Shown here in pieces: positions 8,373 through 64,000 of a stretch of 64,000 nt of DNA (the stretch's first letter is position 1; each line of letters opens with the position of its first letter). Source of the DNA: Escherichia phage EscoHU1; sequence record NC_133119.1; one strand, written 5' to 3'. Made by a program: the position numbers and the translations under genes. Below the pieces are notes generated by a model. That model saw only the letters and a list, made by a program, of their open reading frames with translations. It ran no database searches and was not told the origin of the DNA.

Positions 8373-8382
8373 GAAACCAATT

Positions 8383-10124: not shown

Positions 10125-10153
10125 TTGCTAAATGCTTAAATACTTGCTATAAT
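10125..10153 (+). promoter_or_regulatory. sigma70-type early promoter (TTGCTA-17-TATAAT)
   Basis: -35 10125-10130, -10 10148-10153, downstream TATATAAATTGATAAGGAAG leader. Confidence 0.65.
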
Positions 10154-10183
10154 ATTTATATAAATTGATAAGGAAGAAATTTG

Positions 10184-10963
10184 ATGAAAATCGAAATTCC
10201 AACACAATGTCCCTCTTGTGGTTCTAAGCTAGATCTTGTCAACGGGCAATTATTCTGTAGGAATAAGTCCAACTGTCCAGCGCAATCAAGTAAGTTAATC
10301 GAGAACTTCTGCACAAAAATGAAGTTAAAGGGCTTTGGCCCGAAAACTATTGAGAAGCTGGAACTGACTAAGATCTCAGAACTGTTTTACCTGACCGAAG
10401 AAGATTTGGTCGGAGCTGTGGGTAGCAAGGTTGCCGCTAAGTTGATTAGCGAGTTAAATACTAAGGTTCGCGGAGACATTGACTTTGGTTCGGTTCTCGG
10501 TTCTTTAGGAATTCCTCTTATTGGAGAGGTTGCAGCAAAGAAACTGTCCCAAAATTGCACTAGCTTCCACGATGTGAAGGCTGACGGCAAGGCTGGAGAA
10601 AATTACAAAACCTGGCTAAATTCCCCACAAGGCAAGGATGTTATTGAATTACCATGGAAATTCTCAACTGGTATTCGAGGTACTAAAGCTGATATCATCA
10701 TTACGGATGATTTAGTTGCCCAGCCAAATGGAATCACGATCTGTATTACCGGATCTTTGCAAGATTTTGCAAATCGAACGGATGCAACAAACTATTTAGA
10801 AAGTCTAGGATATACGGTTAAGAAATCCGTTACCAAAGACGTCAAATACCTAATCTGTGAGGATGAATCAAAACGTTCTTCCTCATCTTATAAGAAAGCC
10901 GAAACGAATGGGATAGAAATCCTGTCGATTAAAGAACTATTGGAGAAAAATAATAATGTCTAA
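10184..10963 (+). CDS. NAD-dependent DNA ligase, C-terminal part (Zn finger, HhH, BRCT-like)
   Basis: CPSCGSKLDL...CRNKSNCPAQ zinc-finger motif; ATG 10184 with AAGGAAG RBS. Confidence 0.8.
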   Translation: MKIEIPTQCPSCGSKLDLVNGQLFCRNKSNCPAQSSKLIENFCTKMKLKGFGPKTIEKLELTKISELFYLTEEDLVGAVGSKVAAKLISELNTKVRGDIDFGSVLGSLGIPLIGEVAAKKLSQNCTSFHDVKADGKAGENYKTWLNSPQGKDVIELPWKFSTGIRGTKADIIITDDLVAQPNGITICITGSLQDFANRTDATNYLESLGYTVKKSVTKDVKYLICEDESKRSSSSYKKAETNGIEILSIKELLEKNNNV

Positions 10964-20920: not shown

Positions 20921-22739
20921 GACACTAAAATTCAGCAACGTTATGTCTTACGGTAAGGATATCGTAATTCATTTCGATAAGAATCCAGTTACTCAGTTAA
21001 TCGGAGGAAACGGTCTAGGGAAGTCCACTATTGCTACTGTTATTGAGGAATTGTTTTATAACAAGAACTCACGTGGTATCAAGAAGGACGCCCTATTCTC
21101 TTGGGGTTCTCCGAAGAAAGAGTATGATATGCATGCTTACTTCTCGAAAGATGAAGATGAGTATGAATTGCATAAAGTAGTTAAATCAACTGCTAAGGTT
21201 ACACTGATTAAGAATGGAGAAGATATCAGTGGACACACAGCAACTCAAACGTACAAGATGATTGAAGAGATTATGGGTGGTGACTTCCAAACATTCACTA
21301 AACTAATCTATCAATCTGTTGGTTCCAATCTAGACTTCCTCAAAGCAACTGATGCAACACGTAAAGCTTTTCTTGTTAATCTGTTCAATCAGGAACAGTA
21401 TAAAGAGATGTCAGAAACTATTAAGGCTGATCGTAAAGAAGTGGCAAGTACGTTAAGTAACTTGCAAGGCCAGATGGCCGTAATTACGAAGATCCTCAAT
21501 GGAAAAGGTAATCTCGGAAGTTTACAGGAGCCAGTTGAAGTTCCAGAATTTGATGAAGAACCGTTAGCACAAGAACTTACTGAATCGAAAATTAAGGCGG
21601 CATTAGCCAAGTCACAAGAGGCTAATATTACTAAACTCCGTAATTTGGACAAAGCTGTACAAGTTGCCGAACAATCTTTCGAGCCTTTCAAAAATTTCCC
21701 TGCGCCCACTGACCAATCTGAAGAGATCTCAAGTGTTACGCGTGACTTAACGATTGTTACCTCACGTGCGGGAGAAGTCAAGAAACGTTATCAGAAGTTT
21801 AAGCAAGAGGCTTCAAATACTGAATGTCCTACTTGTGGTACGCATCTTGATACAACTGCTGCTCAAAAAGCAATGGATATGGCTAGAACAGAATATGATC
21901 CTCTGTTTAAAGAGAAACAATCTCTCGAAGCTACATTGGAGCAGTTAAAGAAAGAACAACTCGAGTACGCTGCGTATACTAGAGCTAAGGATGCTTTAGA
22001 TAAGGCAGTAGCAGCTAGAGACGAGTTCAAAAATTCAATGAGTGATGCTTCTTTTGAAGAACTCAATGTGCAGATCCTACAGGTGCAAATCCGACAATTA
22101 GAACAGGAAATCGCTGATGGCCGTTCTAAAGTTGCAATTGCCAAAGAGCATAATGCAAATGTCGAATTAGCCAATGCAAAATATAAAGCGAAACTAGAAC
22201 AGATTGAAAAAGCTGAGGCAGAAATGTCTGAGATAACGTCCAAACTGGATGGAGTATCAGAAGCTGTTGCTGATCTTGATATTCTGATCGCTGCATTGAA
22301 AAATCTGGTAGGATATAAACTAGAGCATAGTGTGAAAGTATTTGAGGAATTGATTAATAAATATCTTTCTATTATGACTGGTGGTAAGTTCGCACTTGGA
22401 TTTGAACTTGATGAAACTAAATTACAAGTAGTAATCTTCAATGATGGAAACCGTACCAGTATGGAAAACTGCTCTACTGGTCAGCAAAGTAGAATTAACC
22501 TAGCAACTCTGTTAGCTATTCGAATGCTGTTAACATCTATTAGTAAAGTTAATATTAATCTTCTGTTCCTTGACGAAGTTATTAGCTTTATTGATACGAA
22601 AGGACTTGATACTCTCGTTGAATTATTAAATGAGGAAGATAGTCTGAATTCTATCATTGTTTCTCATGGGCATACGCATCCATTAGCCCATAAGATTACT
22701 GTCAAAAAAGATGCAGAAGGATTTTCCTACTTAGAATAA
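20901..22739 (+). CDS. Rad50/SbcC-like ATPase (T5 D13-like)
   Basis: N-terminal Walker A GGNGLGKST; central coiled coil with CPTCGT zinc hook; start moved to ATG 20901. Confidence 0.8.
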   Translation: MSKIIIKTLKFSNVMSYGKDIVIHFDKNPVTQLIGGNGLGKSTIATVIEELFYNKNSRGIKKDALFSWGSPKKEYDMHAYFSKDEDEYELHKVVKSTAKVTLIKNGEDISGHTATQTYKMIEEIMGGDFQTFTKLIYQSVGSNLDFLKATDATRKAFLVNLFNQEQYKEMSETIKADRKEVASTLSNLQGQMAVITKILNGKGNLGSLQEPVEVPEFDEEPLAQELTESKIKAALAKSQEANITKLRNLDKAVQVAEQSFEPFKNFPAPTDQSEEISSVTRDLTIVTSRAGEVKKRYQKFKQEASNTECPTCGTHLDTTAAQKAMDMARTEYDPLFKEKQSLEATLEQLKKEQLEYAAYTRAKDALDKAVAARDEFKNSMSDASFEELNVQILQVQIRQLEQEIADGRSKVAIAKEHNANVELANAKYKAKLEQIEKAEAEMSEITSKLDGVSEAVADLDILIAALKNLVGYKLEHSVKVFEELINKYLSIMTGGKFALGFELDETKLQVVIFNDGNRTSMENCSTGQQSRINLATLLAIRMLLTSISKVNINLLFLDEVISFIDTKGLDTLVELLNEEDSLNSIIVSHGHTHPLAHKITVKKDAEGFSYLE

Positions 22740-47329: not shown

Positions 47330-48543
47330 TCTTTATCCCCATCGGCAGTGCCTTGCGGTCTACCACCTTCTTGACCAGATACACCTGTTGCAGAACCAGC
47401 AACGTTAGCAGGAATACGAATCTTATTCATCTGCTCATCATCTAAAGGTTCAAGGTTAAGCTCTTCACGAGCTTCGTTACCAGTCATGATACCGTTATTA
47501 ACCAAAGAGGTTAAATGTTTAGCCTCAGCTTCTTTATCTGGCGTCAGTGCAGCTACTTCCTTAGTATTAGGAGTAACCTTGTAGCCAAAGAAGAAAGTAA
47601 GAGAACTAGTCAGCTTGTTCAGCATAGGAATGATAGTCATGTAATAGAACAATTCGATGTTTGGTCGAATGTTAGCATTATTACCACCATCAAGTAACAC
47701 TTGCGGAACACCAAAGGCAAGACAGATGGATTTATTAAATCCTTCGATATCTTCCTTGAAGTCTAGATCTTTAAAAGAGGATATTTGGGAGTACGGTTTT
47801 GCTTTCATACCACCATCTAGAATCAGGACAGTAGACTGACCCGTACTAGGATTATAATCGAGTTGTAATTCTTCTTGTTTACGCTCACGCAATTTCTTGT
47901 TCAGGATTTCATCCGTCTCAAGAATAAGACCAATCACAGTGCCGTTATCGAGGAACTTCTCTTTAAAGTTAAGCATTTTAGAACGCTTCTCAAGAGAGTC
48001 AATAACTGTAGCAACACGAGATTGTCCAGAAATTTGGGAGTTTGTGCCACACACGTAACTGTTATCCTTTATAAAGATAATCTCATCTACGCGATAGTCT
48101 ATCTGGTTATTAAATATGAATTTTTTGATAAACTTATTGGCATCTGCCTCTACTTGCATTAGTGCAGCAGGGACATGGTAAAGTGCTGTGCCATCCCAAT
48201 AGATGTATGCACAACCCTCAAAAAGTAGGTCAGTGACTACAAGTCTACGGAATGTGCTTATATCCATGAATGGATTAGGTCGTACATTTAAGAGAGTGTC
48301 TAGAGTCTTTGCCTTGACGCCATTAGCGTACGTGACAATATTATATTTATCTCCGACAGTATAAGAACACTCCGCCGCACTATCGATAACCATGTTAGCA
48401 GTTCGGTTGAGAATCTCAATCTTACTGTAGGCTTGTCCAGTGGTAAATGGCTTACGGTTAGTGCGATGACTAACTGGTTCCATGTCTCTTATAATACGTT
48501 GACCCGGATTTAGCTTTTCAGTAATCCAGCTTTTTAAACCCAT
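47326..48543 (-). CDS. portal protein (T5 pb7-like)
   Basis: 405 aa; position between decoration gene and terminase. Confidence 0.85.
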   Translation of the reverse strand: MGLKSWITEKLNPGQRIIRDMEPVSHRTNRKPFTTGQAYSKIEILNRTANMVIDSAAECSYTVGDKYNIVTYANGVKAKTLDTLLNVRPNPFMDISTFRRLVVTDLLFEGCAYIYWDGTALYHVPAALMQVEADANKFIKKFIFNNQIDYRVDEIIFIKDNSYVCGTNSQISGQSRVATVIDSLEKRSKMLNFKEKFLDNGTVIGLILETDEILNKKLRERKQEELQLDYNPSTGQSTVLILDGGMKAKPYSQISSFKDLDFKEDIEGFNKSICLAFGVPQVLLDGGNNANIRPNIELFYYMTIIPMLNKLTSSLTFFFGYKVTPNTKEVAALTPDKEAEAKHLTSLVNNGIMTGNEAREELNLEPLDDEQMNKIRIPANVAGSATGVSGQEGGRPQGTADGDKE

Positions 48544-49067
48544 TATAAGAACCTTGCGAATCCTGATTTAATTTCAGTCTTGACTTGTGTCTTTTCTTGA
48601 GGATTCTGTAGCTTTTCCTTTTGTTTAAGAACCCATACCTTCTGCTTATTAGCAGAGAAAAGGGGAGGTTCTTTAGTGTACACCTTATGTAATAGTTGGT
48701 GATGGTGGACACAAAGGGTAACAGTGTCATCTACTAGCTCATGCCTATATCTTTCATAGAATGCCGTCCTATTTGAGAGGACTGTTTCTTCGTCAGTGAA
48801 ATCCAATTGGAGTTCTTTAGCAAATTTTTTAACTAGTAGAGACACTGTATGGTAATGATGAAGCTCTAATTCTTCACCACAACCACAGATTTCGCAGCGA
48901 TCGGCTTTTTTATATTGACTTTTTATACCGTCTCGCATGAGTGATATAGCATCACGTTTATATTTTACATTTCCTGCCACAGTATTCTCCTCAACTGTAT
49001 GAATATAGTATACATAATCATGTCGAATTTGTAAAGGGGATTTTAAAATGCAGGAATGGGATACCAA
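48543..49067 (-). CDS. HNH endonuclease
   Basis: CEICGCGEELELHHY ... CVHHHQLLHK; stop overlaps portal start; start codon uncertain. Confidence 0.65.
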   Translation of the reverse strand: MVSHSCILKSPLQIRHDYVYYIHTVEENTVAGNVKYKRDAISLMRDGIKSQYKKADRCEICGCGEELELHHYHTVSLLVKKFAKELQLDFTDEETVLSNRTAFYERYRHELVDDTVTLCVHHHQLLHKVYTKEPPLFSANKQKVWVLKQKEKLQNPQEKTQVKTEIKSGFARFL

Positions 49068-49094: not shown

Positions 49095-50411
49095 TTATTT
49101 CCCACGGGAAATTGAGTAAATTCCATAACGCAGTGCGTCACAAAGGTGAGAATTCGCATCATGACGTGGTTTTTCACGTGATAATTTCTCTTCGCCTTCC
49201 TGGAAGTCCCACTTGTAGTTCGCTAGGGCGTGGATCAATGAGGTACATGAAGCATCTACGATGATCTTACCTTGCTGGAACAGTGCTTGTAGGCATGCCA
49301 GACCATCTAGGACAGATTTCTTAGCAGGTGCGGAAGCGATTTCATGTTCATATGCTAAGTCCTGACGGAACTGAGCAGCAGCGGAGTCTACAAATATACG
49401 ATCAACATTATAACGATCTATGCAGTGTTGGATATAAGCAGCATGTTGAGCTGTAGTCTTTTCAGCTTGCTGGTACTCTTCCAGAACATAATAGATATCG
49501 GTATCATAGTGATATTTGATAGTAAGAACTGCTGTTGGATCACGATAACCAACGTCGATACCAAGTAAGGTTTCAAATGCTTCATCATCTTTAAAGAAGT
49601 GACGCATACCCTTGAGGTCTTTAACATGCTCGATAGCATTGAAGGTGTCAAAGATCTGACCTTCGAATACAGAGAAGTCAGCCTCATATTCTTGGCGGAA
49701 GTAGTTTTTACTAACAGTACGACGCGCTTCTTCGATATCGTTCAGATCAGCACGTGGGTTATCACGATATGTACCATGAATAGATACCCAGTTAGGTAGC
49801 GTTTCGTTAAATCCTTTCTCATAGAACTCTTTAAACCAGTTACCACCACGAGGTGTGGAAATAAATAGAGCTTTAGAGTTTGGTTTATCTAGGGTAGGAC
49901 GTAACTGAATATCGAAAGCTGCACCACCAACATCGGAAATAGCTGCTTCGTCAAAGATGATGAAGTCATACGAACGACCAACCGCGGAGTCAGCCTGTGC
50001 CGCAGAAGCCAGCTTAAAGAGAGAACCATTCGCTAGTTCAATCTCCTTATCTTTGGCGTTCTCACGTTCAGTCTGTAGCCCATATTTCTTAATAAGACCA
50101 CGAATCTGAGACCAACCGATGTTAGCCAGTGAGTAGTTAGGTGCAACTACTAGCACCTTCACATTAGGCTCCAGAAGCTTCAGGAACCCAAGTGTATATG
50201 CGATGAATGACTTACCTACACGACGTGATACACATGCGGTCACGAAACGGTGTCTTGGGTCTTCCAACGCATTAATAATTGCAATTTGAGGGGCATTAGG
50301 TGTAATTCCCTCTTGTGCTAGGATGCTAGAGACTGGTAGACGAAAGAATCGTTTGTCAATACCAAAGTCAATAACATCTGTGGTGTTAATATAGTCTCTA
50401 GAGACTTTCAT
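49095..50411 (-). CDS. terL: terminase large subunit
   Basis: 438 aa; Walker A-like VSRRVGKS; C-terminal nuclease-type region. Confidence 0.9.
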   Translation of the reverse strand: MKVSRDYINTTDVIDFGIDKRFFRLPVSSILAQEGITPNAPQIAIINALEDPRHRFVTACVSRRVGKSFIAYTLGFLKLLEPNVKVLVVAPNYSLANIGWSQIRGLIKKYGLQTERENAKDKEIELANGSLFKLASAAQADSAVGRSYDFIIFDEAAISDVGGAAFDIQLRPTLDKPNSKALFISTPRGGNWFKEFYEKGFNETLPNWVSIHGTYRDNPRADLNDIEEARRTVSKNYFRQEYEADFSVFEGQIFDTFNAIEHVKDLKGMRHFFKDDEAFETLLGIDVGYRDPTAVLTIKYHYDTDIYYVLEEYQQAEKTTAQHAAYIQHCIDRYNVDRIFVDSAAAQFRQDLAYEHEIASAPAKKSVLDGLACLQALFQQGKIIVDASCTSLIHALANYKWDFQEGEEKLSREKPRHDANSHLCDALRYGIYSISRGK

Positions 50412-50893
50412 TATCTCTTACCTCCTCCTGCTAGAGCGGTAATAAGATTCATATAGTTTTCGTCACCACTTCCAGCAATAATATTATTCTGAATGTTAGT
50501 CTGGTTAGCCGGAGTACGGGCTGCTGCCTTCACTTTCTCCAGTTCTACCATCATTTTCATTTCTTCCATTTTCATCTTGTGCGCCTTCCAGAGAATATCC
50601 ATGATATCCTGGTCAGAACCCATGCCAGTTTCTTCAAGTTCTTCTAGCTTACGCTTGATAACTTCATCAAGAACCCCAAACAAACGGTCACGATTACGGA
50701 AGCCGCTTTCCATAAAGATATCGTTAAGATAGTTTTTAACTTCCCCACGATTCATTATATCACGGAATGCAATCTCGGACATCCCAAGACTACGAGCAGC
50801 GGCAGGAACATCACTACCGCACTGTAAATAGGCCTCAATAACATCCATGCCTTCGGGAGACATGAGATCGGGAACTAATACATCATTTGCCAT
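50411..50893 (-). CDS. putative terminase small subunit (HTH)
   Basis: 160 aa; N-terminal HTH-like [20 protein letters not shown]; immediately upstream of terL. Confidence 0.5.
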
Positions 50894-54033: not shown

Positions 54034-54147
54034 GTTAGCGCTAATTACCAATTCTCGAAATCTCATAAGATTACACATGAAGGCGTGCCCAGAGGTTCCC
54101 TAGATGAGAATGAGTCTCATTACCGCCCCGGTACTTAGCAAGCTAAT

Positions 54148-54191
54148 AGTCACACCATGTTATCATTACACAGTGTGACTATTTTATTTTT
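54148..54191 (+). terminator. terminator-like hairpin between convergent genes
   Basis: AGTCACAC ... GTGTGACT (8-bp stem, 17-nt loop) followed by ATTTTATTTTT. Confidence 0.45.
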
Positions 54192-54196
54192 AATTG

Positions 54197-54931
54197 TTAG
54201 GCAACTTTTAATTTATCAATGAATTGTTGCGGCGTGGTACTATATTCCGCGCGTTCTTCCTCGGTCATACCTTCCCAACACATTTTTAAACGTTCGGCTA
54301 GGAATTGATAATCGTTATCATCATCTAACGATTCATCAATAAAGGTTTCACCGATCAATGTTACCCCGATTGATAGGATATCGTTAACGGCTTGAGCGTC
54401 CAGCGTTTTAAATCCAGCATTTGCCGCCGCCGATAATACACCTTTATGATCATCAATCATTGTAAAATCAGCGTTCGGGTATAGCTGTTTAAACAGTTCA
54501 AAGTAATAAGATTTATATACAGCGTCTTTGCTGTGGTATATTTCGCTAACCTTATCCGCATCAAAGTATTTATGCAAAGTATCGCGGGAAAATACGCGAA
54601 TATTACTATTTCCGCGCCCTCTTAGACTTTGTTTACGCAAGAAATAATAATCAGATTTACCCATTAAGCGAGCGGTACAAATAAGGTTTAAGGTATTGGG
54701 ATCATTCATACATTGGCGCATATATTCAACCAATGGTAATAAGGAATCCTGCATAATTAATTCATGTTTGCAGGCTTCGCGGGAATACTTAACTAAATCT
54801 AAATTCCCGTTATCGTCAAAGCAAGGCGCTACACGATGGAAAGAATTTATAATCGTTCCGTCTAAATCCCAAATCATAACGCGGGAAATATGCGGGAAAG
54901 TGTGGGTAATATTCATGTTGACTTGATTCAT
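54197..54931 (-). CDS. dmp: HAD-family 5'-deoxyribonucleotidase (T5 Dmp-like)
   Basis: 244 aa; HAD motif I MIWDLDGTI; position next to A1-like gene. Confidence 0.7.
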   Translation of the reverse strand: MNQVNMNITHTFPHISRVMIWDLDGTIINSFHRVAPCFDDNGNLDLVKYSREACKHELIMQDSLLPLVEYMRQCMNDPNTLNLICTARLMGKSDYYFLRKQSLRGRGNSNIRVFSRDTLHKYFDADKVSEIYHSKDAVYKSYYFELFKQLYPNADFTMIDDHKGVLSAAANAGFKTLDAQAVNDILSIGVTLIGETFIDESLDDDNDYQFLAERLKMCWEGMTEEERAEYSTTPQQFIDKLKVA

Positions 54932-55018
54932 TTGTTACATTCTCCATTTAAGGGATTTAGGTTAATTCAATCTTGCCAGCTAATTATATTAGATTAGCTG
55001 GCAATGTTCAATTAACTA

Positions 55019-55411
55019 TTAGAACGCCAGACCAAAAGCGAGAGCATCGGCGATAAAGCTAAGATCTTCACCATGTACACTAGAGCGAATCCCCGCGCAA
55101 GTGTAAACCATCGCGCTAGCTTCGGGATTGCAAACCGGACACGGCTTAACAACCGCAAACGCTAGACCGGATTTAAGCGCATCAATAATAATTGTTTGCA
55201 CTGTCAAAGTATCAGCGTAAACGCCTTTTGCTTTTGTATGGCTTGCCACTTTGCCGGTATCATAAGCAAAGGTAGTAACCTGCAAAGCGTCGTTATAATT
55301 CAGCAAATCAAAATTAACTTGCCCCGCTTCGACGTGGTAACGTTCGCCATTAGAATAAACTAGAACGATGGAAGAAGTAGCACGATCAAAAGGAATGTTT
55401 TGGTTTTTCAT
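55019..55411 (-). CDS. hypothetical protein
   Basis: 130 aa ORF in pre-early-type leftward operon. Confidence 0.5.
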   Translation of the reverse strand: MKNQNIPFDRATSSIVLVYSNGERYHVEAGQVNFDLLNYNDALQVTTFAYDTGKVASHTKAKGVYADTLTVQTIIIDALKSGLAFAVVKPCPVCNPEASAMVYTCAGIRSSVHGEDLSFIADALAFGLAF

Positions 55412-55445
55412 GTTTATGACTCCAGATTATTTATATTTACGGGAT

Positions 55446-55724
55446 TTATTGAAAAAATACGTTTAAAGATAAATCAATTTTACGAAAGTATGTTTCGTCG
55501 CCGTCTTTCCTTTCTTGATTAAGGTAATCGCCTGTCATTACCTGAATAGAATCTTTTCCGAAAAAGATCATATTTTCGCCAATATTACTATCCCATACGG
55601 CATACATTCCCGCGTACATCCCACGGGTAACTAAATAAACGAAACTATCAAAAGACATTTCAGACCATGCAATATCTTCTAAACAATTGCTATCGGGGAT
55701 AGATATATTAATTTTACTAGCCAT
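55446..55724 (-). CDS. hypothetical protein
   Basis: 92 aa ORF. Confidence 0.5.
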   Translation of the reverse strand: MASKINISIPDSNCLEDIAWSEMSFDSFVYLVTRGMYAGMYAVWDSNIGENMIFFGKDSIQVMTGDYLNQERKDGDETYFRKIDLSLNVFFQ

Positions 55725-55776
55725 TTAATAAACCTTTTATTAATGGCGGTATATTTCAACCGCCGATTAAATTTAA

Positions 55777-57441
55777 TTATGCAAAGAATTTACCGTTTTT
55801 GAAATCAATCAAAGTACGTTGCCCGTTTGCATAGGTAATTAAATGCGTTTGCGTCCAGCTTGACGCGCCCACGTTGTAACCCATATCAAGCGACCCCGCC
55901 ACGCCAGCGGTATAAACGCCGCCGTAAATGCTAGCCGTATGAGTATGACCAGTGTTAAGGCGTCCAAGTTTCTTAAACTGCTTAGGATTGCCCCGACTGC
56001 CGTTAATGCCATTGTGACCATGTACGCCGCACTCAATGCCAGCGATTTTAAATGACTGGTCAGTAGTCAGGAAAATAGCGTTAAATTCGCAACCTGCAAC
56101 GTTTCTAAGCGCGTAATCTAGCACGTTAAAGGTATCATCCTTTTCAGCAATAGCGGCGTAAATCGCAGCGTTTAGACGGTGATACAATTCCGCGTTTGCG
56201 GGATCGTCTTTAATGTTAGCGTTACGATCATCAAGCCAGCGTGAAAGAGCTAAATCATGGTTAGATTCCACAATGATTGTTTGAGAGAAATCACGCTCCA
56301 TTGATTCTAATACGCGTCCAGTATCGATAAGATCATCAATAACTTTATCACGTCCTGCGGCGTACTGTTTAGCAAGGAATACACCACTAGCGCGGTTGTG
56401 ATGGTTGCGCGATGTAAAATCATGCACATCATGAATAAACTGATATTTAGGCTTGAGAATATCAAGCAAGCTGTTTTCACTAGCCCATGATGCAACGGCG
56501 CAATCATCATCTAATTTTTCGGCGTGAATATCGCCATATTGCAAGCCTAGAACATGATCGGACGTTTTATAACATCCGGTAGGAGTAGCGCAAACATTCA
56601 AATCATAGAACATTCCGCTTTCATCCATTGTTTCAAGCTGGCGAACGAAAAATTCTCCGTCGTCGTCGAACTCCACCAGCAAAGCGCCGAAATTATGCAG
56701 AGCCTCAGCTTTTTGACCTGCTTTCTGCTGAATGTAGTTTTTAAGCGTAGCCGTTCCGGTTGAATACATACGGCGCACTACTTCACCTTTTAACGCTGGC
56801 ACACTTTCAGCGGTGATTTTAGCGTGACCTATTGCCAGCCCTTCAATATTTAAAGCCGTGGCGGTTTCTGCGAATCCTGAAAGCGGATAATCTGCCGTTG
56901 GTAAAACGTTAATTTCAGCCATGAAAGCAAAGCGGCGGTTATTCAGGAAAACATTTTTATCGCAGATATATTTATCAAATGCGGGATCGTATTTGATTCC
57001 TTCTGCACCTTCCCCGTTCTGGAATCCATTTTTATTATAAATGAATTTACTAATCAGCAATTCAGCACCGATATATTCAGCAAATTTTTCCAGACTTGCT
57101 AAAAAGTTTTTATGCGGGAAAGTATTATTTTGAATCGACGTTAGAATAAAACGGCGACCGGATTTAACTTCCCATTGTTCAACGGTACTAGAAACAATTC
57201 CCGCCGCTTCGGGGCGATCATCATTTTTAATCGCCTTTTCAGCTTTTGCCGCTTTCGGTTTCGCTGGCTTGTTTGCTTCCAGCCAATCACAAATCGCGGT
57301 TGAATGTTTCGGCGTATCATAAACAGCTTTTGAAATATCGTCGCAAACTTCCAATTTAGTAGCGCGTAAACGCTTACCGTAGAAATTAAAATCAGCGGCC
57401 ATTTTCAAAATTTGAGCTTGTTTTTCTGCGGAAATATTCAT
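55777..57441 (-). CDS. A1: A1-like pre-early protein (metallophosphoesterase-type)
   Basis: 554 aa; calcineurin-like phosphoesterase motifs (GDIHAE, GNHD, GHTHTAS); size matches T5 A1. Confidence 0.8.
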   Translation of the reverse strand: MNISAEKQAQILKMAADFNFYGKRLRATKLEVCDDISKAVYDTPKHSTAICDWLEANKPAKPKAAKAEKAIKNDDRPEAAGIVSSTVEQWEVKSGRRFILTSIQNNTFPHKNFLASLEKFAEYIGAELLISKFIYNKNGFQNGEGAEGIKYDPAFDKYICDKNVFLNNRRFAFMAEINVLPTADYPLSGFAETATALNIEGLAIGHAKITAESVPALKGEVVRRMYSTGTATLKNYIQQKAGQKAEALHNFGALLVEFDDDGEFFVRQLETMDESGMFYDLNVCATPTGCYKTSDHVLGLQYGDIHAEKLDDDCAVASWASENSLLDILKPKYQFIHDVHDFTSRNHHNRASGVFLAKQYAAGRDKVIDDLIDTGRVLESMERDFSQTIIVESNHDLALSRWLDDRNANIKDDPANAELYHRLNAAIYAAIAEKDDTFNVLDYALRNVAGCEFNAIFLTTDQSFKIAGIECGVHGHNGINGSRGNPKQFKKLGRLNTGHTHTASIYGGVYTAGVAGSLDMGYNVGASSWTQTHLITYANGQRTLIDFKNGKFFA

Positions 57442-57549
57442 AACTAAATCAACTCCTATAAAGGGATAAATATTAATACTGGCAATATTGCCAAATATAA
57501 CGCCTTGCCTGAAGTGAGGACAATTTAAAAGGCGTTATAATTTGCAATA

Positions 57550-57795
57550 TTATTCTAGAATTGGCATAAGACTAGAACTAAACCCGCAACTAATAGCCAG
57601 CGTTAAAAATATAATCGCCAGATATTTTTGTTTATTAGCTTGACGTTTAAACATATCAGCGGCATAAGCTGAATTAATGCCGATAATAGAGATTATATAT
57701 TTGCCGTAATTAAATATAAATATAGCGGCAACTATAAATAAACCTAAAATAAACGCTTCACTAGGAAAGAAAATCATTTTAATAACTCCGGTCAA
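57550..57795 (-). CDS. small membrane protein
   Basis: 81 aa with two hydrophobic helices. Confidence 0.45.
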   Translation of the reverse strand: MTGVIKMIFFPSEAFILGLFIVAAIFIFNYGKYIISIIGINSAYAADMFKRQANKQKYLAIIFLTLAISCGFSSSLMPILE

Positions 57796-57806
57796 AGGGA
57801 AATTAT

Positions 57807-57826
57807 AGCGGGGAATATTCCCCGCT
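57807..57826 (-). terminator. intercistronic hairpin (possible attenuator)
   Basis: AGCGGGGA-ATAT-TCCCCGCT; same stem sequence recurs at 61089-61109. Confidence 0.4.
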
Positions 57827-57835
57827 AATTAAAAT

Positions 57836-58252
57836 TTATTCACCTGCGGCCTGTTTCACTTCCTCCGCTACGCCTAACAATTGCGCCACGGCTTCCAGCG
57901 TTTCCAGTTTTGCACTTTCCAGACTTGCCAGATCATCAGCGTCTTTAATAACGCCAGCATCAATGGCATGTTTAGCCATAACGCGCACATAGTGAGCTTT
58001 ACGGACACTAGACCCGCCGCCAACTTTACGCGGTTTATCGCTTTTCTGGTACGCTTTTGCGCTTGTCAGTTTAGAACGTACAGACACCGGACTAGCAGCG
58101 CCAACGGCGGCGGCAATTTCTTTTAAGCCGTCACTATTCGCAAACTCAATCCCGCTTTTAGCGACCATTTCAGAATACATAGAAACAGCCTTTTCGGTGT
58201 TTTCTTCGTTCCAAGAAAATTTTGCGGTTTTTTCGGTTTTAACGTTAGACAT
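57836..58252 (-). CDS. putative A2-like pre-early DNA-binding protein
   Basis: 138 aa; assigned by position upstream of A1-like gene and size only. Confidence 0.45.
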   Translation of the reverse strand: MSNVKTEKTAKFSWNEENTEKAVSMYSEMVAKSGIEFANSDGLKEIAAAVGAASPVSVRSKLTSAKAYQKSDKPRKVGGGSSVRKAHYVRVMAKHAIDAGVIKDADDLASLESAKLETLEAVAQLLGVAEEVKQAAGE

Positions 58253-58352
58253 AATTTAATACTCCATTCAATTATTAATTAAGGGATTATGATTAACTAA
58301 TGTTAATCCATATATTCCCCATATTTCAGGGGAATATAAAAGTAACACTAAT

Positions 58353-58604
58353 TTATGCTATGGCTTGCCATTTATCATCTTTCTGAATGACCTTTACAAC
58401 GTCGCCAGATTTAACACGGACGTTATAAATCGGCTTGCCGTTGTTGCTACGTTCCGTTTCCGCGTAAACCGCTTCGATTTTATCGAAAGGATCAAGCGCC
58501 GCACCTTTGATACGTTCGGCTTTTCCGGTTAATTCATCAGTTTTAGTTACAAAAGGAATGAAAACAGATTGACCTACTTTCGGCGCGGTAATAACGTTTT
58601 GCAT
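58353..58604 (-). CDS. hypothetical protein
   Basis: 83 aa; first gene of leftward operon. Confidence 0.45.
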   Translation of the reverse strand: MQNVITAPKVGQSVFIPFVTKTDELTGKAERIKGAALDPFDKIEAVYAETERSNNGKPIYNVRVKSGDVVKVIQKDDKWQAIA

Positions 58605-59377
58605 TTTTAATACTCCGGTTTATTGGGGATTATTCCACAATAGCGCCTCGATACTTTGAAACGCTATTAGATTATAATCCGCTAGGAGTTAGCCTAAACA
58701 TTACCGTTATCCAAATTTTTAAAGAGCAGTTACTACGGGGAACATCTTAAAACCTATCGGCTAGCGTGTCAAGCGTTTTTTAAACTTTTTTCGATTTGAT
58801 GTGAGTTATATAAATCAATCATTATATTACGCCACACCATTTCCAGCCCTTGTTGCTTGCCTTTCTTGTATTGCTTGAATCTGTATTTTACAGATCGTTG
58901 CGCTACTGTCAACAAATTTTTTGTTCTGCTATCCAGTGGGCTAGCAGGTTTCGCACTAATCACTAAAGCGTTTTTTGATTTGATCATTATCGTCGATTCC
59001 TTATATTATATAAGTTTACCGCCGATAGGCTTTAAGATATTCCCTAATTTTTAAAGAGCATGGCGGTAAACTTCCCCGCCGTTGTAGTCTGGCCTTTCGT
59101 TTCCGTCTTGCCGTCCTACGAGATAAATAATAGGTTATTCCCGAAAATGGCGCAAGCATATTTTTGTAAAGAAACGTAAAGAAAACCACTACTCGCAAAC
59201 GTCCAGCGGCGCACTAAATTTAATGAAACGGGCGCGCGAATAACACCAAAACAACCATTTTAGCAAGTAATTTTTTCATTTATATTTGCTTTGCCCTACT
59301 TGACAAAATCTAAAATCCTCGTGGTGAGGTTTTCTCGGTGTACCCCTTATGATTGCCTATCTTTTCCTTTGAGGCGC

Positions 59378-59404
59378 TTAGAATCGCTTACAGAGCGTTT
59401 TAGA
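59378..59404 (+). repeat. 27-bp direct repeat, copy 1 (TTAGAATCGCTTACAGAGCGTTTTAGA)
   Basis: 24/27 identical to 63154-63180. Confidence 0.7.
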
Positions 59405-59620
59405 CCCTGTTAATAACTTATACAAAAAGCAAAAATGAAATTTAATGAATTATCCACTTGATTTTTCAAAAAAGTATTTTCTGCTGTTATTTTTCATTGA
59501 CAAATAAGTTTAGGCGTGTATCAGACCCTTAGCAGACTAACAATCGCTAGGATGATAATCACGCTGGTGGATTGTAACAGCCGAAACAGTTAGCAGACTA
59601 TTAATACTCTAAAAACCTAT

Positions 59621-59650
59621 TAGCCAACTAACTATTTCATATTATATAAT
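59621..59650 (+). promoter_or_regulatory. candidate rightward promoter (TAGCCA-18-TATAAT)
   Basis: -10 TATAAT 59645-59650 with AT-rich downstream leader; weak -35. Confidence 0.35.
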
Positions 59651-59721
59651 ATACTTATAAATTAAAGAGAAATAATAACTATAAGAAACTATCGGCTAAG
59701 TGAGAACCACTATCATTTAGG

Positions 59722-59742
59722 TTATTCACAAAGTTATCCACA
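59722..59742 (+). promoter_or_regulatory. pair of DnaA boxes (TTATTCACA, TTATCCACA)
   Basis: 9-mers at 59722-59730 and 59734-59742 match TTATNCACA. Confidence 0.6.
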
Positions 59743-59782
59743 GCACAAAATAACTTGACGCAATAGGCGACGTTTTGGCGAC

Positions 59783-59829
59783 TTATCCACAGACTTATGT
59801 ACAGGTTATCCTACTGTATAAATATACAG
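59783..59829 (+). repeat. 47-bp inverted repeat, left copy (DnaA box + SOS-box-like palindrome)
   Basis: 41/47 identical to reverse complement of 63213-63259; begins with TTATCCACA 59783-59791. Confidence 0.7.
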
Positions 59830-59830
59830 G
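59811..59830. promoter_or_regulatory. LexA (SOS) box-like palindrome CTGTATAAATATACAG
   Basis: CTGT-N8-ACAG with AT-rich centre; matches E. coli LexA consensus TACTGTATATATATACAGTA at 17/20. Confidence 0.55.
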
Positions 59831-60017
59831 GTAGAATGGTAGCAGTAACAACCGCAATCAAATTTAAGCGGCCTAAAACGCGTTCTAAGCGGTTTTTCAG
59901 CATTACCCCTTATTATAATAAAGCCTTGTGTACGCTTACAGAGAGCTAGAAATAGAAAACGCGCGGTTAGCACAAAAATAGGCAGTAGGCAAGGAATAAA
60001 AAACCTTTTCTTTTTTC

Positions 60018-60047
60018 TTGCCCCTAGCGAACAAATATCTATATCAT
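60018..60047 (+). promoter_or_regulatory. candidate promoter for rightward operon (TTGCCC-18-TATCAT)
   Basis: -35 60018-60023, -10 60042-60047, ~30 nt before RBS GAGGGAG. Confidence 0.35.
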
Positions 60048-60078
60048 TCACTCACCGATTAACGAGGGAGACAAAGAA

Positions 60079-61080
60079 ATGTCTACTGTAAGAATTGCAG
60101 TACCAACAAACGCAACTATTATTAAAGGTAGTTTGCGCAACCTGCTAGATGGTAGTAGTGCGGCAAGTATTCAGCACACCGCCGCAATGGTTGAAAAAAT
60201 TCACGAGGATATTTTAGATAATAATGATACTCATTATTCAGTCGATGATTTCACGCTATTACTAGACCAGACAAGGGCGCTAGTAATTTTCAACCGTGAT
60301 TATCACATTTTCCGTAATAGTCGTGGAACTGATATTGATTTTATCATTGTTGGTTATAGTGAGTCTCATAATGGTTACATTGCGCGATTATATAACGTGC
60401 AAGAAAAAGAGCAGGTAACAGCAACAAAAGTAAATAGTATCAGGCTTGATAGTGTCGGGTCGTTATTAAATAGTATCTGGCGCGAATTATCGTCAAGCTA
60501 TAAAGGCGCGGATAGTGACGCAATCGAAACAACTGGCGTATTGTGTTTTGAACGCGCTAGCGGTAACATGTTGATTCCTGACGATTATTTAGGGTACGGG
60601 AATGAATCAAACGTTGCAAACGCTGGATTTACATTAAAACCGCTTGACAACGTAGCAAAACAGGCTGTAGAATCTCAAACTTCAAGCGCAAATGCGCAAA
60701 CTACTGAAAATAAAGGAAATATTATGTCTAAAGTATCTTCTATCGTTGCTGCTAATAAATCCGCCGTTGTAAACGCTGCTAAATTGGAAGCGGGTAAAAT
60801 TGCACTGACTCAAATCACAAAAGTAGCGGCGAAAAAAGCGCCGTTTATGATTAAAGGGTATATTGATACGCCGATTGGTCGCGTAGTGATCGCTAACCTG
60901 CTGAGTGTAGCGGTTGACCAGTACGCCCCGACTAATGCGAAAGCGAAAGCGGTAGCAGGCGCGGCAATGGAAGCGGCAATGTTGGAAATGGTACAGAGTT
61001 TCAATATTGCGGAAATGATCGATGAAATGGTAAAAGGTATTGACATTTCTACTTTTACCAATAACACCGAAAGCGAGTAA
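60079..61080 (+). CDS. hypothetical protein
   Basis: 333 aa; RBS GAGGGAG; Ala/Lys-rich C-terminal half; no enzymatic motif. Confidence 0.55.
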   Translation: MSTVRIAVPTNATIIKGSLRNLLDGSSAASIQHTAAMVEKIHEDILDNNDTHYSVDDFTLLLDQTRALVIFNRDYHIFRNSRGTDIDFIIVGYSESHNGYIARLYNVQEKEQVTATKVNSIRLDSVGSLLNSIWRELSSSYKGADSDAIETTGVLCFERASGNMLIPDDYLGYGNESNVANAGFTLKPLDNVAKQAVESQTSSANAQTTENKGNIMSKVSSIVAANKSAVVNAAKLEAGKIALTQITKVAAKKAPFMIKGYIDTPIGRVVIANLLSVAVDQYAPTNAKAKAVAGAAMEAAMLEMVQSFNIAEMIDEMVKGIDISTFTNNTESE

Positions 61081-61088
61081 TAATAACT

Positions 61089-61120
61089 AGCGGGGATTAT
61101 TTCCCCGCTTTACTATTTCC
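61089..61120 (+). terminator. rho-independent terminator / attenuator
   Basis: AGCGGGGA-TTATT-TCCCCGCT followed by TTACTATTT. Confidence 0.55.
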
Positions 61121-61145
61121 CTGCTAATTAATAGGAGACTAATTA

Positions 61146-61640
61146 ATGTCAGAAGAAAAATATGGCTTTTCGCTAGAAAGTGTGAATGAAGCTAAACACG
61201 ATATGATCGTTTTAGTTGATTGTCATACTGGTTATTGCGGGGAGGGCTGGACGGAAGAACATTTTGTTCCCGCTGGCTGTGATCTGGATGCTTTCGCAAA
61301 CGAACACGCATATGATAATGCTTCTCGTTTCGGTAGCGATGGGGAAGAAGATGAAGAAACAGGGGAATGGATTGAAAATGATAATGTATATGCGAGTCTT
61401 TATCATTATCAATTGAGTAAGTCCGGTACTTATGTAAATGGCGGCGATCCTATTAATATCGTTATGAAACTAATTATTAAACACGGTGGCGCGGAAATAA
61501 TTGGTAACAAGGCGTTATTATACGCAAACCGATTAAAACAGCTTGTTTATATTCCTGATAATTCCCGTTGGGATGAATATGCCGTTTTACAGAAAGAATT
61601 AAAACGCTGTTTCGGCGTGGAAGCATTAGAAATAGTCTAA
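61146..61640 (+). CDS. hypothetical acidic protein
   Basis: 164 aa; acidic patch GSDGEEDEETGEWIEND; RBS TAGGAGA. Confidence 0.55.
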   Translation: MSEEKYGFSLESVNEAKHDMIVLVDCHTGYCGEGWTEEHFVPAGCDLDAFANEHAYDNASRFGSDGEEDEETGEWIENDNVYASLYHYQLSKSGTYVNGGDPINIVMKLIIKHGGAEIIGNKALLYANRLKQLVYIPDNSRWDEYAVLQKELKRCFGVEALEIV

Positions 61641-61749
61641 TGTAAAGTTTTGTAAAGGTCGCTTTAATCGGCGGCCTTTTTTGTTATAATGCCTTTACAC
61701 CGAAACGGTGGATTGAAAATTTTCCCAAAATTTTTTGGAGGCGTTAAAA

Positions 61750-61980
61750 ATGGTTGCTTTCTCTTCTTCTGACTCTCTTTTCACTGGTAAAGGTTGGGTA
61801 TCTAATCGCTGGATCATTGATCAAATGGTTTCGGAATTTGGGATAGGTAAAACTTATGTTACTATTCAGGCGCTTTATGATAATGATCAGATTGACCAGC
61901 AAACCGCCGGATTTTTGCTGGACACGTTGAAATCAGAACATTGCACCAAAAAGCAAGCGGCAAAAATCGTTTTAATGTAA
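61750..61980 (+). CDS. hypothetical small protein
   Basis: ATG 61750 after GGAGG RBS; trimmed from ORF-track 61735..61980 (TTG). Confidence 0.45.
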   Translation: MVAFSSSDSLFTGKGWVSNRWIIDQMVSEFGIGKTYVTIQALYDNDQIDQQTAGFLLDTLKSEHCTKKQAAKIVLM

Positions 61981-62033
61981 TTAATAACGGGGCGTTACTT
62001 TCGCCCCTCATTCCCTAACTAGGAGTTAAGCAA

Positions 62034-62246
62034 ATGTTAAAGAATGTTTCCCTTGCCCGTTCTAAAGGTTTTAAGCTGGTGGATGTTAACACGTTCGAGC
62101 GTCCAGATTGTAAAATCGAATATGTAGCACGCAACAAAAACGCTTTCCGTGTTACAGAAAAGAAATTTGACAAGCGCGGAAATTTGGTAGCCGAAACGGT
62201 TAAACACTTTGCCACCTTTTACGCTGCGTTTCGTGGGGTGTTATGA
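62034..62246 (+). CDS. hypothetical small protein
   Basis: 70 aa; RBS TAGGAG. Confidence 0.5.
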   Translation: MLKNVSLARSKGFKLVDVNTFERPDCKIEYVARNKNAFRVTEKKFDKRGNLVAETVKHFATFYAAFRGVL

Positions 62247-62344
62247 GATCCTTATATATTGCTCTAGCGTTTGCTACCGTTGGCGTTGTATGTTCCGTCG
62301 CCGCATTTGTTTTAAAAATGTACCTGATATTTTCCCAGCTTTAG
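62243..62344 (+). CDS. small hydrophobic peptide
   Basis: 33 aa MRSLYIALAFATVGVVCSVAAFVLKMYLIFSQL; ATGA overlap with upstream stop; not in ORF track. Confidence 0.3.
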   Translation: MRSLYIALAFATVGVVCSVAAFVLKMYLIFSQL

Positions 62345-62355
62345 GAGCTTGACAA

Positions 62356-62703
62356 ATGGTTATTTACGAGGGCAATCGTTTTGTTGCTAATTGCCGTCCG
62401 GCATTATTAGCAAACTATTTAAATCAGCTTTCACCAGTTTATAAAGGTGTGGTTAATATCTATGAAGGCAAAGCACATTATAAAATTTCTGCCGTTGTCG
62501 CTCGCGAGCTTGCCTTTCAGTTTCTTACTTTTAACTCATGCGATATTCAGGTTATGGGTGAGTCATTAGTAGCAGAAAATGAAAATGAATTTATTGACAT
62601 TTTCCGCAAAGTATGTACCGAGCGCCTGATTATGAAAGGCGCATATATTCAATCAACCGCTGATAGTATTGAAACAGCGTTTCGAAAAATTGCATATGAA
62701 TAG
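62356..62703 (+). CDS. hypothetical protein
   Basis: 115 aa; RBS TAGGAGC. Confidence 0.5.
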   Translation: MVIYEGNRFVANCRPALLANYLNQLSPVYKGVVNIYEGKAHYKISAVVARELAFQFLTFNSCDIQVMGESLVAENENEFIDIFRKVCTERLIMKGAYIQSTADSIETAFRKIAYE

Positions 62704-62742
62704 CTGGTGGCGTAAAACGCAAAGTCACAAATCTAATAATAC

Positions 62743-62772
62743 CGCTGGGAAACATTCCCAGCGTTTACGATT
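62743..62772 (+). terminator. terminator-like hairpin
   Basis: CGCTGGGA-AACA-TCCCAGCG followed by TTTACGATTT. Confidence 0.45.
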
Positions 62773-62826
62773 TGGTAATGGCTTCACAATGATATTGATA
62801 ATCATTCTCATTCTAGGAGCAATGGC

Positions 62827-63066
62827 ATGGCTGTAAGAATTTTACGATATGTAGAACGTAAAGAAACCGATATTATGCAGCATCATTTAACTGATGCGCA
62901 ATATGCGCAATTTTTAGAAATGCAGAAAAGCGGAGCTAGTACGGCGGCGCTAGGGGCGTGGATCAATTCAGTTTCAATATGTACGCATTTTGATTCATAC
63001 GGATATACGCCAGCCGAAACCGTCCAGATCTTTGACGACTACGAGAAGGAATACATAGCAGACTAA
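62827..63066 (+). CDS. hypothetical small protein
   Basis: 79 aa; RBS TAGGAGCA. Confidence 0.5.
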   Translation: MAVRILRYVERKETDIMQHHLTDAQYAQFLEMQKSGASTAALGAWINSVSICTHFDSYGYTPAETVQIFDDYEKEYIAD

Positions 63067-63072
63067 TAATAA

Positions 63073-63101
63073 CGGGGCGCAACTACCGGCCCCGCCTTTT
63101 C
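63073..63101 (+). terminator. rho-independent terminator at end of rightward operon
   Basis: CGGGGC-10 nt-GCCCCG followed by CCTTTTCT. Confidence 0.5.
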
Positions 63102-63153
63102 TGGCCTTCCTCAAATTTCCCCTTGTAAAATACCTCCTCCAAAAATAAACGCG

Positions 63154-63180
63154 TTAGAATGCGTTACAGAGCGTTTTAGA
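63154..63180 (+). repeat. 27-bp direct repeat, copy 2 (TTAGAATGCGTTACAGAGCGTTTTAGA)
   Basis: 24/27 identical to 59378-59404. Confidence 0.7.
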
Positions 63181-63210
63181 GCTATATTAGAGCTATTCAC
63201 TACACAGGAA

Positions 63211-63230
63211 TACTGTATAAATATACAGTA
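63211..63230. promoter_or_regulatory. LexA (SOS) box-like palindrome TACTGTATAAATATACAGTA
   Basis: 19/20 match to E. coli LexA consensus; core 16-mer identical to 59814-59829. Confidence 0.6.
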
Positions 63231-63259
63231 GAATAACCTGTTGATAAGTCTGTTGATAA
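63213..63259 (-). repeat. 47-bp inverted repeat, right copy (SOS-box-like palindrome + degenerate DnaA boxes)
   Basis: reverse complement is 41/47 identical to 59783-59829; contains TGTTGATAA twice. Confidence 0.7.
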
Positions 63260-63352
63260 CGCCTCAAAATCGCTAGGATTTTGTCAGGTCAAATCGTGCT
63301 GTTAATAAACCTGTGAATAAATTAAATAACAGTGTTTCTCACTTCACTTTGT

Positions 63353-63497
63353 AAATGCGAGTCATTCTCGTTATCATTCGCGTTTCCCTTCCTAAATGCA
63401 AATCATTCTCATTCGTATTCCGGTAGTCAAATGATAACCATTCTCATTCGCATTCAACTTCTCAAATGCGAATCAATCTCATTATCATTCGCATTTT
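63353..63497 (+). repeat. tandem array of four imperfect palindromic units (consensus AAATGCGAATCATTCTCATT-N-CATTCGCATT)
   Basis: units start at 63353, 63394, 63429, 63464 (35-41 bp period); each unit is internally palindromic. Confidence 0.75.
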
Positions 63498-63502
63498 GGC
63501 AG

Positions 63503-63535
63503 GCAGGGCATTTTCATTTTGCCCTGCGCTTTTGT
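63503..63535 (+). terminator. hairpin between repeat arrays
   Basis: GCAGGGC-ATTTTCATTTT-GCCCTGC followed by GCTTTTG. Confidence 0.35.
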
Positions 63536-63757
63536 GCAAATCCGACATTTGCCCCCACGGATTACGTGCCAGCGTGCATGTGCGAATCCGACAATTTTTG
63601 GTAGTGTGCAAATCCGATGGCAAATATTTTTTATATGTGCGAATCCGACAATGAATTTTCCTAAAAACTCCAGCAATCACGAGTGCGGCTCGATTCCTGT
63701 GGAATTAGCTAGAATATGCGCAGAACCGACAAGCGTTAAGGTGTGCGAATCCGACAA
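63533..63757 (+). repeat. six direct copies of a 16-bp motif TGTGCGAATCCGACAA
   Basis: copies at 63533, 63579, 63605, 63636, 63717, 63742, all same orientation, irregular 25-81 bp spacing. Confidence 0.75.
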
Positions 63758-64000
63758 GATTTTTGTGACTTCGATGAGAGGGTGTGTAATTGTGTGAGTT
63801 TGTGGGAGAGTTGATGCAGCGAGAGAAAATTAGAGGAGAAACTGGAGGGTGCAGCTGTGGTGGCGTGAAACGCCTGGTTTGCTGCGTTTTTGGGGATAAT
63901 GTGGGATGTTTTGGGATAATTGGGCATGGAGCGAGATAAAGTGAAATTTTATTAGCAAAATGGGGCAAAATCGCTTGACAAGTGAAAATTCCTGTGGCTC

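Follow-up and report, generated by a model that had tools for sequence, protein, structure and literature searches.

The window analysed here was the right-hand 64 kb (64,000 nucleotides, to which all positions refer unless another record is named) of the genome of Escherichia phage EscoHU1 (NC_133119.1), a T5-like (Epseptimavirus) phage. Its last kilobase matched 520 phage records, with phages of Salmonella, Escherichia and Klebsiella at the head; the top matches listed were all T5-like, and the best was Salmonella phage JNwz02 (Epseptimavirus), at 95.9%. A plasmid element was rejected, as this kilobase found no match in PLSDB. Positions 54154-64000 aligned with positions 83-10219 of T5 (NC_005859), the alignment stopping exactly at 64000; within it, 63140-64000 corresponded to T5 9338-10219 and ended at the terminal-repeat end of T5, whose RefSeq record annotates 1-10219 as the left terminal repeat. 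Two features referred to below were

50411-50893, minus strand: small terminase gene (phrog_3802)
54086-64000, no strand assigned: right terminal repeat of ~9.9 kb, with the pre-early genes (dmp, A1, A2, others) and a non-coding region; left boundary deduced from T5

The terminase genes as a whole occupied 49095-50893 and the pre-early genes dmp, A1 and A2 54197-58252. Downstream of these pre-early genes, a long non-coding stretch was found at the inner repeat end, in which a DnaA-box inverted repeat, a palindromic DRE/DRC array, a nick site, an array of direct repeats and the end of the terminal repeat followed one another in this order; the T5 RefSeq record likewise shows no CDS between 9157 and 10936. 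Promoter and terminator scans and a search of Rfam returned no strong promoter, no convincing terminator and no Rfam match in the region, and a transcriptional or RNA function of the repeats was set aside on this basis. The elements at the right-hand end of the stretch were as follows.

63503-63529, no strand assigned: GCAGGGC...GCCCTGC hairpin with GCGC at its end, homologous to the site of the major T5 single-strand interruption at 7.9%/99.6%
63533-63547, plus strand: DRD1, TGTGCAAATCCGACA (longer form TGTGCAAATCCGACAT), PWM score 28.0, orthologue at T5 9752
63579-63593, plus strand: DRD2, exact copy, TGTGCGAATCCGACA, orthologue at T5 9798
63605-63619, plus strand: DRD3, TGTGCAAATCCGATG (longer form TGTGCAAATCCGATGG), variant 3′ end, PWM score 23.7, orthologue at T5 9824
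63636-63650, plus strand: DRD4, exact copy, TGTGCGAATCCGACA, orthologue at T5 9855
63661-63682, plus strand: CTAAAAACTCCAGCAATCACGA, between DRD4 and DRD5, resembling the first bases outside the T5/BF23 terminal repeat, TAAAAACTCAGGCAATCA
63717-63731, plus strand: DRD5, TGCGCAGAACCGACA (longer form TGCGCAGAACCGACAA), decayed, PWM score 13.0, orthologue at T5 9936
63742-63756, plus strand: DRD6, exact copy, TGTGCGAATCCGACA, orthologue at T5 9961
63758-63961, plus strand: tract rich in G and poor in C that separates DRD6 from the terminus box; conserved in T5, My1 and Klebsiella phages
63962-64000, plus strand: terminus box GGGGCAAAATCGCTTGACAAGTGAAAATTCCTGTGGCTC, aligning with T5 10181-10219; its last base closes both the terminal repeat and the genome on the right

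The six direct repeats, which are all copies of TGTGCRAATCCGACA on the same strand, spanned 63533-63756 on the plus strand. Six copies in one orientation had been claimed by the first-pass annotation, and they were indeed present where it placed them, although they were not identical: three were exact (TGTGCGAATCCGACAA at 63579, 63636 and 63742), two were close variants, and DRD5 was degenerate, with four mismatches and a PWM score of 13 against a maximum of 28, its T5 counterpart being perfect. The separation of 25-81 bp given there agreed with the observed 46, 26, 31, 81 and 25 bp when taken from start to start. A chance origin of the repeats is excluded. The 16-mer was matched five times in the window at up to three mismatches, against 0.43 expected, and none of 100 shuffled sequences reached five matches; the 10-mer core GCRAATCCGA was matched six times, against 0.18 expected.

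The same motif was found in T5 with identical spacings, at 9752, 9798, 9824, 9855, 9936 and 9961 (stretch 9752-9976), and extra copies were found just beyond the repeat end, at 10305, 10340 and 10477. When the first 13 kb of T5 were searched with the motif TGTGCRAATCCGAC at up to three mismatches, ten copies were recovered, of which nine formed the array and one lay inside T5.019. The T5 RefSeq record (NC_005859) carries a misc_feature at 9140-10149, ‘injection stop signal (iss)’, which contains the orthologous repeats, and Davison (2020, bioRxiv 10.1101/866236), in the nomenclature of Wang et al. (2005), listed nine DRD copies in ‘Repeat Region 3’ and stated that about 25 T5-like phages share this conserved region. 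The six repeats of EscoHU1 are, as judged from motif and position, almost certainly the DRD direct repeats of this T5-type Repeat Region 3, annotated as iss. The DRD element has thus already been described (Wang 2005, Davison 2015/2020) and is found here as an orthologue; in the literature up to 2026, the region is described only as a presumed injection stop signal. The likeness to T5 covers the motif, the six positions and their spacings, the neighbouring elements and the distance to the repeat end. In contrast, identity over the region was ~79%, DRD5 has decayed in this phage, and three of its copies have G, and not A, at core position 5. Copies outside the repeat were present in the closest relatives (three, including MF431736), and the EscoHU1 window stops at the genome end, before DRD7-9.

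Several other elements surround the array. Between DRD4 and DRD5, the CTAAAAACTCCAGCAATCACGA element (63661-63682) probably corresponds to the ‘DRA’ repeat of the literature, and a third copy resembling it was seen just ahead of DRD7. The GT-rich tract with duplicated motifs that had been reported downstream of the repeats was real: positions 63758-64000 held 85 G and 24 C (GC skew +0.56), and a 20-bp tandem duplication at 63889-63928 carried GGGATAAT at 63893 and again at 63913. Upstream, paired DnaA boxes lay at 63239-63320, some 220-300 bp before the DRDs. An almost perfect LexA-type SOS box (CTGT-N8-ACAG), TACTGTATAAATATACAGTA, was observed between paired DnaA boxes at 63211-63230, and the same palindrome was present in T5 (about 9411-9430) and, twice, in Vibrio phage Pylo. 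At 63351-63490, the palindromic array consisted of units (AAATGCGAATCATTCTCATT...) with a weak likeness to the Fur box (5-6 mismatches in 19), which is only a hint, as 53 positions of the window matched equally well.

Immediately to the left of the array, the nick-site GCGC ended 4 bp before the start of DRD1, and the T5 RefSeq record places a major single-strand interruption at 9748-9749, likewise 4 bp ahead of the first DRD copy. By homology, the nick in EscoHU1 would fall after 63529, on the minus strand. The four annotated major nick sites of T5 had more in common than R/GCGC, sharing CCCTGCGC/ (the slash marks the break) followed by (G)ATTACG ~28 nt on, and the corresponding module in EscoHU1 consisted of GCCCTGCGC at 63521-63529 and CGGATTACG at 63558-63566 (T5 equivalent, 9740-9790). 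Such proximity raises the question of whether the DRDs help to specify the adjacent 7.9%/99.6% interruption, the more so as a DRD1-like copy still stood beside the nick site in a Proteus phage. However, the other annotated major nicks of T5 (18.5, 32.6 and 64.8%) displayed CCCTGCGC and a downstream TTAC(G) with no DRD, and only one of the nine DRD copies adjoins a nick. The DRDs were accordingly rejected as the nick-site determinant, and even a contributory role in nicking is extremely improbable.

The last base of the window, 64000, aligned with the last base of the T5 terminal repeat, and the genome-end-proximal location proposed by the first-pass annotation was therefore borne out. At the level of sequence alignment, this confirms that the EscoHU1 window ends at the true genome terminus. 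The right repeat end fell at a conserved sequence terminating in TTGACAAGTGAAAATTCYTGTGGMTC in T5, BF23 and phiR2-01; the ends of BF23 were determined with PhageTerm (PMC10644984), and the repeat end of phiR2-01 comes from doubled read coverage (PMC8624392). DRD6 started 258 bp before the physical right end, the same distance being found in T5, BF23 and phiR2-01, and in these three phages the terminus lay 257 bp past the DRD6 core and 87 bp ahead of the DRD7 core. The DRDs of EscoHU1 thus occupied the last 470 bp of the ~10-kb direct terminal repeat, and the array as known from relatives straddled the right terminal-repeat boundary, with six copies inside and two to four outside. The earlier suggestion that the repeats mark a terminal-repeat boundary needs to be reworded in this light: the boundary does not coincide with the repeats of the window, being 243 bp past the last copy, at 64000, but in relatives the repeat family continues across it. 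A homologous terminus box was also found at the end of a My1-type contig, with DRD copies on both sides, and in the record of Vibrio phage Pylo the repeat boundary fell within an array of about 11 copies. The DRDs therefore lie, by their geometry, next to the cut that forms a genome end, as a terminase site does, and the terminase recognition suggested by the first-pass annotation is plausible in this respect. The terminus box (63962-64000) itself is likely to be the actual determinant of the cut site. Some GenBank records of T5-like phages disagree with this conserved terminus, being ~210 bp short (the chee130_1 group, MF431736) or 28 bp short (Kenya-K38, OQ291035). The chee130_1-type repeat end, 48-50 bp after DRD6, was discarded as imprecise, since it had been set by a ‘>130% coverage’ rule.

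Comparison across phages indicated that the array is highly constrained. The core GTGCAAATCCGA, its orientation and its spacing were conserved in Tequintavirus, Epseptimavirus, Klebsiella, Pantoea and Pectobacterium phages, and more loosely in Vibrio phages; the core was kept in Klebsiella phage Roth49 (4+6 copies), in Pantoea phage AAS21 and in the My1-type contig, and it was looser in the roughly 11 copies of Vibrio phage Pylo. The layout was nearly fixed and confined to one strand: a block of six copies was followed, after 342-344 bp, by a pair spaced 35 bp apart and in many cases by a ninth copy 137 bp on, which gave near-invariant spacings across loci of 46, 26, 31, 106, ~343, 35 and 137. 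The 106 bp from DRD4 to DRD6 stayed the same while DRD5 took one of two alternative positions exactly 10 bp apart (81+25 or 71+35), EscoHU1 using 81+25 and other phages having DRD5 10 bp further left. In 154 distinct site contexts, the positions of T-GTGC-R-AATCCGA-Y carried 1.2-2.0 bits (those of the core 1.6-2.0) and the flanks less than 0.4 bits, and a T-tract was located 5 bp downstream of each copy. This breadth of conservation, the straddling of the boundary, the uniqueness within the genome and the absence from bacterial genomes are the new detail added to the earlier descriptions of the element.

As for uniqueness, a PWM scan of the window and of T5 from 13 to 63 kb revealed no comparable site elsewhere, beyond a few intragenic copies, and no DRD at the left repeat boundary. 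Among the intragenic matches, a tandem DRD-like pair, GTGCAGATCCTAC and GTGCAAATCCGAC, encoding VQILQVQIRQ, was noticed in the D13 (SbcC-like) gene at 22067-22096 (T5 78936-78965); in T5 it lies at 64.8% of the genome, the classical major-nick position, with no GCGC beside it. This pair was dismissed as a conserved element, as it ranked 132nd of 987, not above the gene background, and was absent from the Vibrio-type D13. A same-orientation copy was also noticed in the early gene T5.019 (T5 12153-12168), about 1.9 kb to the right of the repeat end. It was present in most Tequintavirus and Epseptimavirus loci, and its candidacy as a conserved element was dropped as well (rank 184 of 799, not above the gene background). 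Outside these genomes, an IMG/VR scan for paired motifs (two copies 8-38 bp apart) recovered 39 stretches, all on contigs of 95-122 kb, which is the T5-like range, and the same scan of one genome each from 185,579 bacterial and archaeal species gave a single match, on a 3-kb MAG contig. Such a distribution argues that the DRD array is not a host element. The one lineage that departed from the pattern was a Proteus Novosibvirus phage, in which the nick-site module, one DRD1-like copy, the G-rich tract and a terminus-box-like sequence, a probable homologue of the box, were kept, and the DRD array was absent, other repeat families being found instead.

These comparisons bear directly on the possibility that the DRDs are weak sites for a conserved host protein, DnaA, extending the DnaA-box cluster proposed to tether incoming DNA to the membrane. 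The reverse complement of the repeat, ATTTGCACA, is one position off the DnaA-box consensus TTWTNCACA, the A-variant matching 8/9 positions, and some Klebsiella-phage copies (TTTTGCACA) match all nine; true DnaA boxes, moreover, lie 220-300 bp upstream. Nevertheless, the consensus was not conserved as such in the DRDs of the window, which showed one to two mismatches, the two-mismatch G-variant being the dominant form. The conservation of the repeat also extended well beyond a 9-bp box, with an invariant CCGA, and the Pylo motif, TTTGCACCT, loses the final box position even though the true DnaA boxes of Pylo are perfect. Together with the virtual lack of the paired motif among the bacterial genomes scanned, this makes a DnaA-binding role very improbable, and the copies of My1 and the Vibrio phages ruled out both a DnaA box and a palindromic operator.

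The combination of direct repeats, paired DnaA boxes (63239-63320) and AT-rich palindromes is also reminiscent of iteron-type replication origins, and the T5 gene set includes a putative origin-binding helicase that carries a helix-turn-helix motif, so that the DRDs might be iterons bound by a phage initiator, such as the UL9-like origin-binding helicase D2. The spacing of the DRDs is irregular, however, unlike helically phased tandem iterons, no initiator gene adjoins them (the neighbours are unannotated or pre-early genes), and an origin at this place would mean two copies per genome. Mapped initiation also points elsewhere, the electron-microscopy studies, as far as they are cited by Davison, placing the origins near the genome centre. 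An origin at the DRDs is thus considered improbable.

A more substantial alternative concerns the two-step transfer of T5 DNA. It would hold that the DRDs are part of the injection stop/restart signal and serve as sites for the pre-early dimer A2 (with A1), or for a virion-borne or host protein, which would either arrest the DNA at about 8% transfer or, on resumption of the second step, capture the DNA and ratchet it in. The array lies within the T5 iss feature, the region is conserved in all T5-like phages, and the point at which first-step-transfer DNA is estimated to shear (9618 in AY587007, ~9698 in NC_005859, corresponding to ~63470 of the window) lies only about 50 bp to the left of the array. 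Furthermore, second-step transfer depends on A1 and A2, the latter being a dimer that binds DNA, and the basic core of A2, VRSKL..YQK..RKVGGGSS.RKAHYV, was strongly conserved, even in Vibrio and Proteus phages. On the other hand, the same published estimate puts the DRDs on the not-yet-injected side of the stop, and Davison regarded the DnaA-box inverted repeat and the adjacent DRE repeats, left of the shear point, as the likely stop signal. A2 cannot cause the stop, because the stop occurs without new protein synthesis. In addition, an asymmetric core in uniform orientation is easier to reconcile with a head-to-tail oligomer than with a symmetric dimer, conservation of the TGT..ACA quasi-palindrome did not extend to My1 or Pylo, and A2 is present in the Proteus phage, in which the DRD array is missing. 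The AlphaFold model of A2 (pLDDT 83) gave no significant fold match, with no PDB fold having an E-value below 0.8 and with weak HTH/Myb-like resemblances, while a PDB sequence search found nothing for A2 and Pfam was uninformative. Finally, a role in transfer leaves unexplained that the repeat boundary always falls inside the array. A part for the DRDs in the transfer stop or restart is therefore regarded as possible but doubtful, and the earlier proposal of an injection-stop signal holds insofar as the locus is orthologous to the iss annotation of T5, this orthology being positional only.

The reading favoured here, although with somewhat less than even confidence, is that the packaging machinery would recognise the DRDs as a platform on which to form the right genome end. 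From the pattern of the repeats, we infer that a protein binds them, which protein this may be and that they act in end formation. The DRDs would be asymmetric, same-orientation binding sites for a phage-encoded DNA-binding protein, with the small terminase subunit as the most likely candidate. In concatemers with one terminal repeat per junction, DRD1-6 and DRD7-9 would form a contiguous array of about 750 bp, onto which the packaging complex would be loaded and which would direct the cut to the terminus box, ending in TTGACAAGTGAAAATTCYTGTGGMTC, within the 343-bp gap between DRD6 and DRD7. The right end of the genome would result from this cut, and the DnaA boxes and palindromes further left would then serve the injection stop. 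An oligomeric phage protein acting on concatemer junctions is favoured because the core is asymmetric, the orientation uniform, the spacing fixed and accompanied by T-tracts, and the array present once per genome unit. The reader is taken to be phage-encoded also because the array is absent from hosts and is replaced by other repeats in one lineage; motif replacement in the Proteus Novosibvirus phage would fit a phage-encoded reader that co-evolves with its sites. The packaging reading agrees with the accepted model for long direct terminal repeats, in which a fixed position is recognised, staggered nicks are introduced and the 3′ ends are extended (PMC5557969; PMC8108384). The right end should be packaged first, because the left end is injected first.

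A more specific version of the packaging reading, held only tentatively, is that the packaging-recognition site comprises the DRD array as well as the terminus box, the small terminase assembling on DRD1-9 across the concatemer junction and setting the right boundary of the 10-kb repeat; this might also explain why the major nick lies 4 bp from DRD1. If true, the region called ‘injection stop signal’ would hold two separable signals. Several points weigh against the packaging reading. The helix-turn-helix region of the small terminase was poorly conserved relative to Pylo (44% overall), in which the DRD core is the same, and the terminase genes lie about 13 kb from the DRD sites. The conserved terminus box alone could be sufficient for the terminase, and the terminal-repeat ends are imprecise in several database records. 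Because the left repeat boundary has no DRD, the packaging reading would have to invoke a further signal on that side. The left end of T5 has also been stated to be packaged first (PMC3517423), in which case the role of the DRDs would shift from initiation to termination. Comparison with distant phages did not discriminate between the two candidate proteins: identities were 44% for the small terminase and 44% for A2 in Vibrio phage Pylo, and 48% and 40%, respectively, in Proteus phage PL1. The motif persisted in the former phage and disappeared from the latter.

The small terminase gene was observed to coincide with an ORF named ‘putative sciB’ in the T5 record M62847 and ‘putative SciB protein’ in MT311645, sciA and sciB being loci reported to control single-chain interruptions. 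This coincidence raises the possibility that the small terminase affects nicking. A 174-aa protein encoded on the minus strand at 48543-49067, between the genes for the large terminase and the portal, was also observed to have a weak HNH-endonuclease match (phrog_8048, E 2e-5). It recalls the HNH proteins that assist the terminase in some cos phages.

For EscoHU1 itself, these results establish an orthologue of a described element and, by alignment, a true genome terminus, and nothing further is added. The functions first proposed for the repeats were the right set, but the first-pass annotation did not resolve them and did not recognise the known DRD element. The array sits where the transfer stop and restart of T5 and the recognition and cutting of the 10-kb-repeat end both act. 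The 1.6-kb non-coding region must hold at least two cis functions, transfer stop and right-end formation, and the geometry of the DRDs suggests that the end-formation signal is separable from the injection stop signal. Being highly constrained and specific to T5-like phages, the DRD array offers a defined, mutable target for either function.

The recognition sites of several terminases flank or adjoin the cut, as do the R-sites of lambda cosB, the 4+3 hexamers of P1 pac and pacL/pacR of SPP1. In these systems, multiple short sites are found within a few hundred bp of a DNA end; they lie on the side that is packaged first, and P1 and SPP1 have them on either side of the cut. The DRDs resemble them in being multiple short sites near a DNA end, at one locus per genome unit, but they are far from the terminase genes and form a longer array (about 750 bp), and the T5-like phages have 10-kb direct terminal repeats, as opposed to the cohesive or headful ends of lambda, P1 and SPP1. 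Iterons such as those of P1 oriR, R6K and lambda ori are likewise repeats of 15-20 bp in a single orientation, close to DnaA boxes and AT-rich DNA, and the DRDs differ from them in their irregular spacing, in having no adjacent initiator gene and in that the published T5 origins are located elsewhere. In T7, arrays of short repeats, SRL and SRR, flank both sides of the 160-bp terminal repetition. The DRDs differ from SRL and SRR in sequence and unit length; in both cases, however, short direct repeats lie beside the exact boundary of a direct terminal repeat in phages that package their DNA from concatemers.
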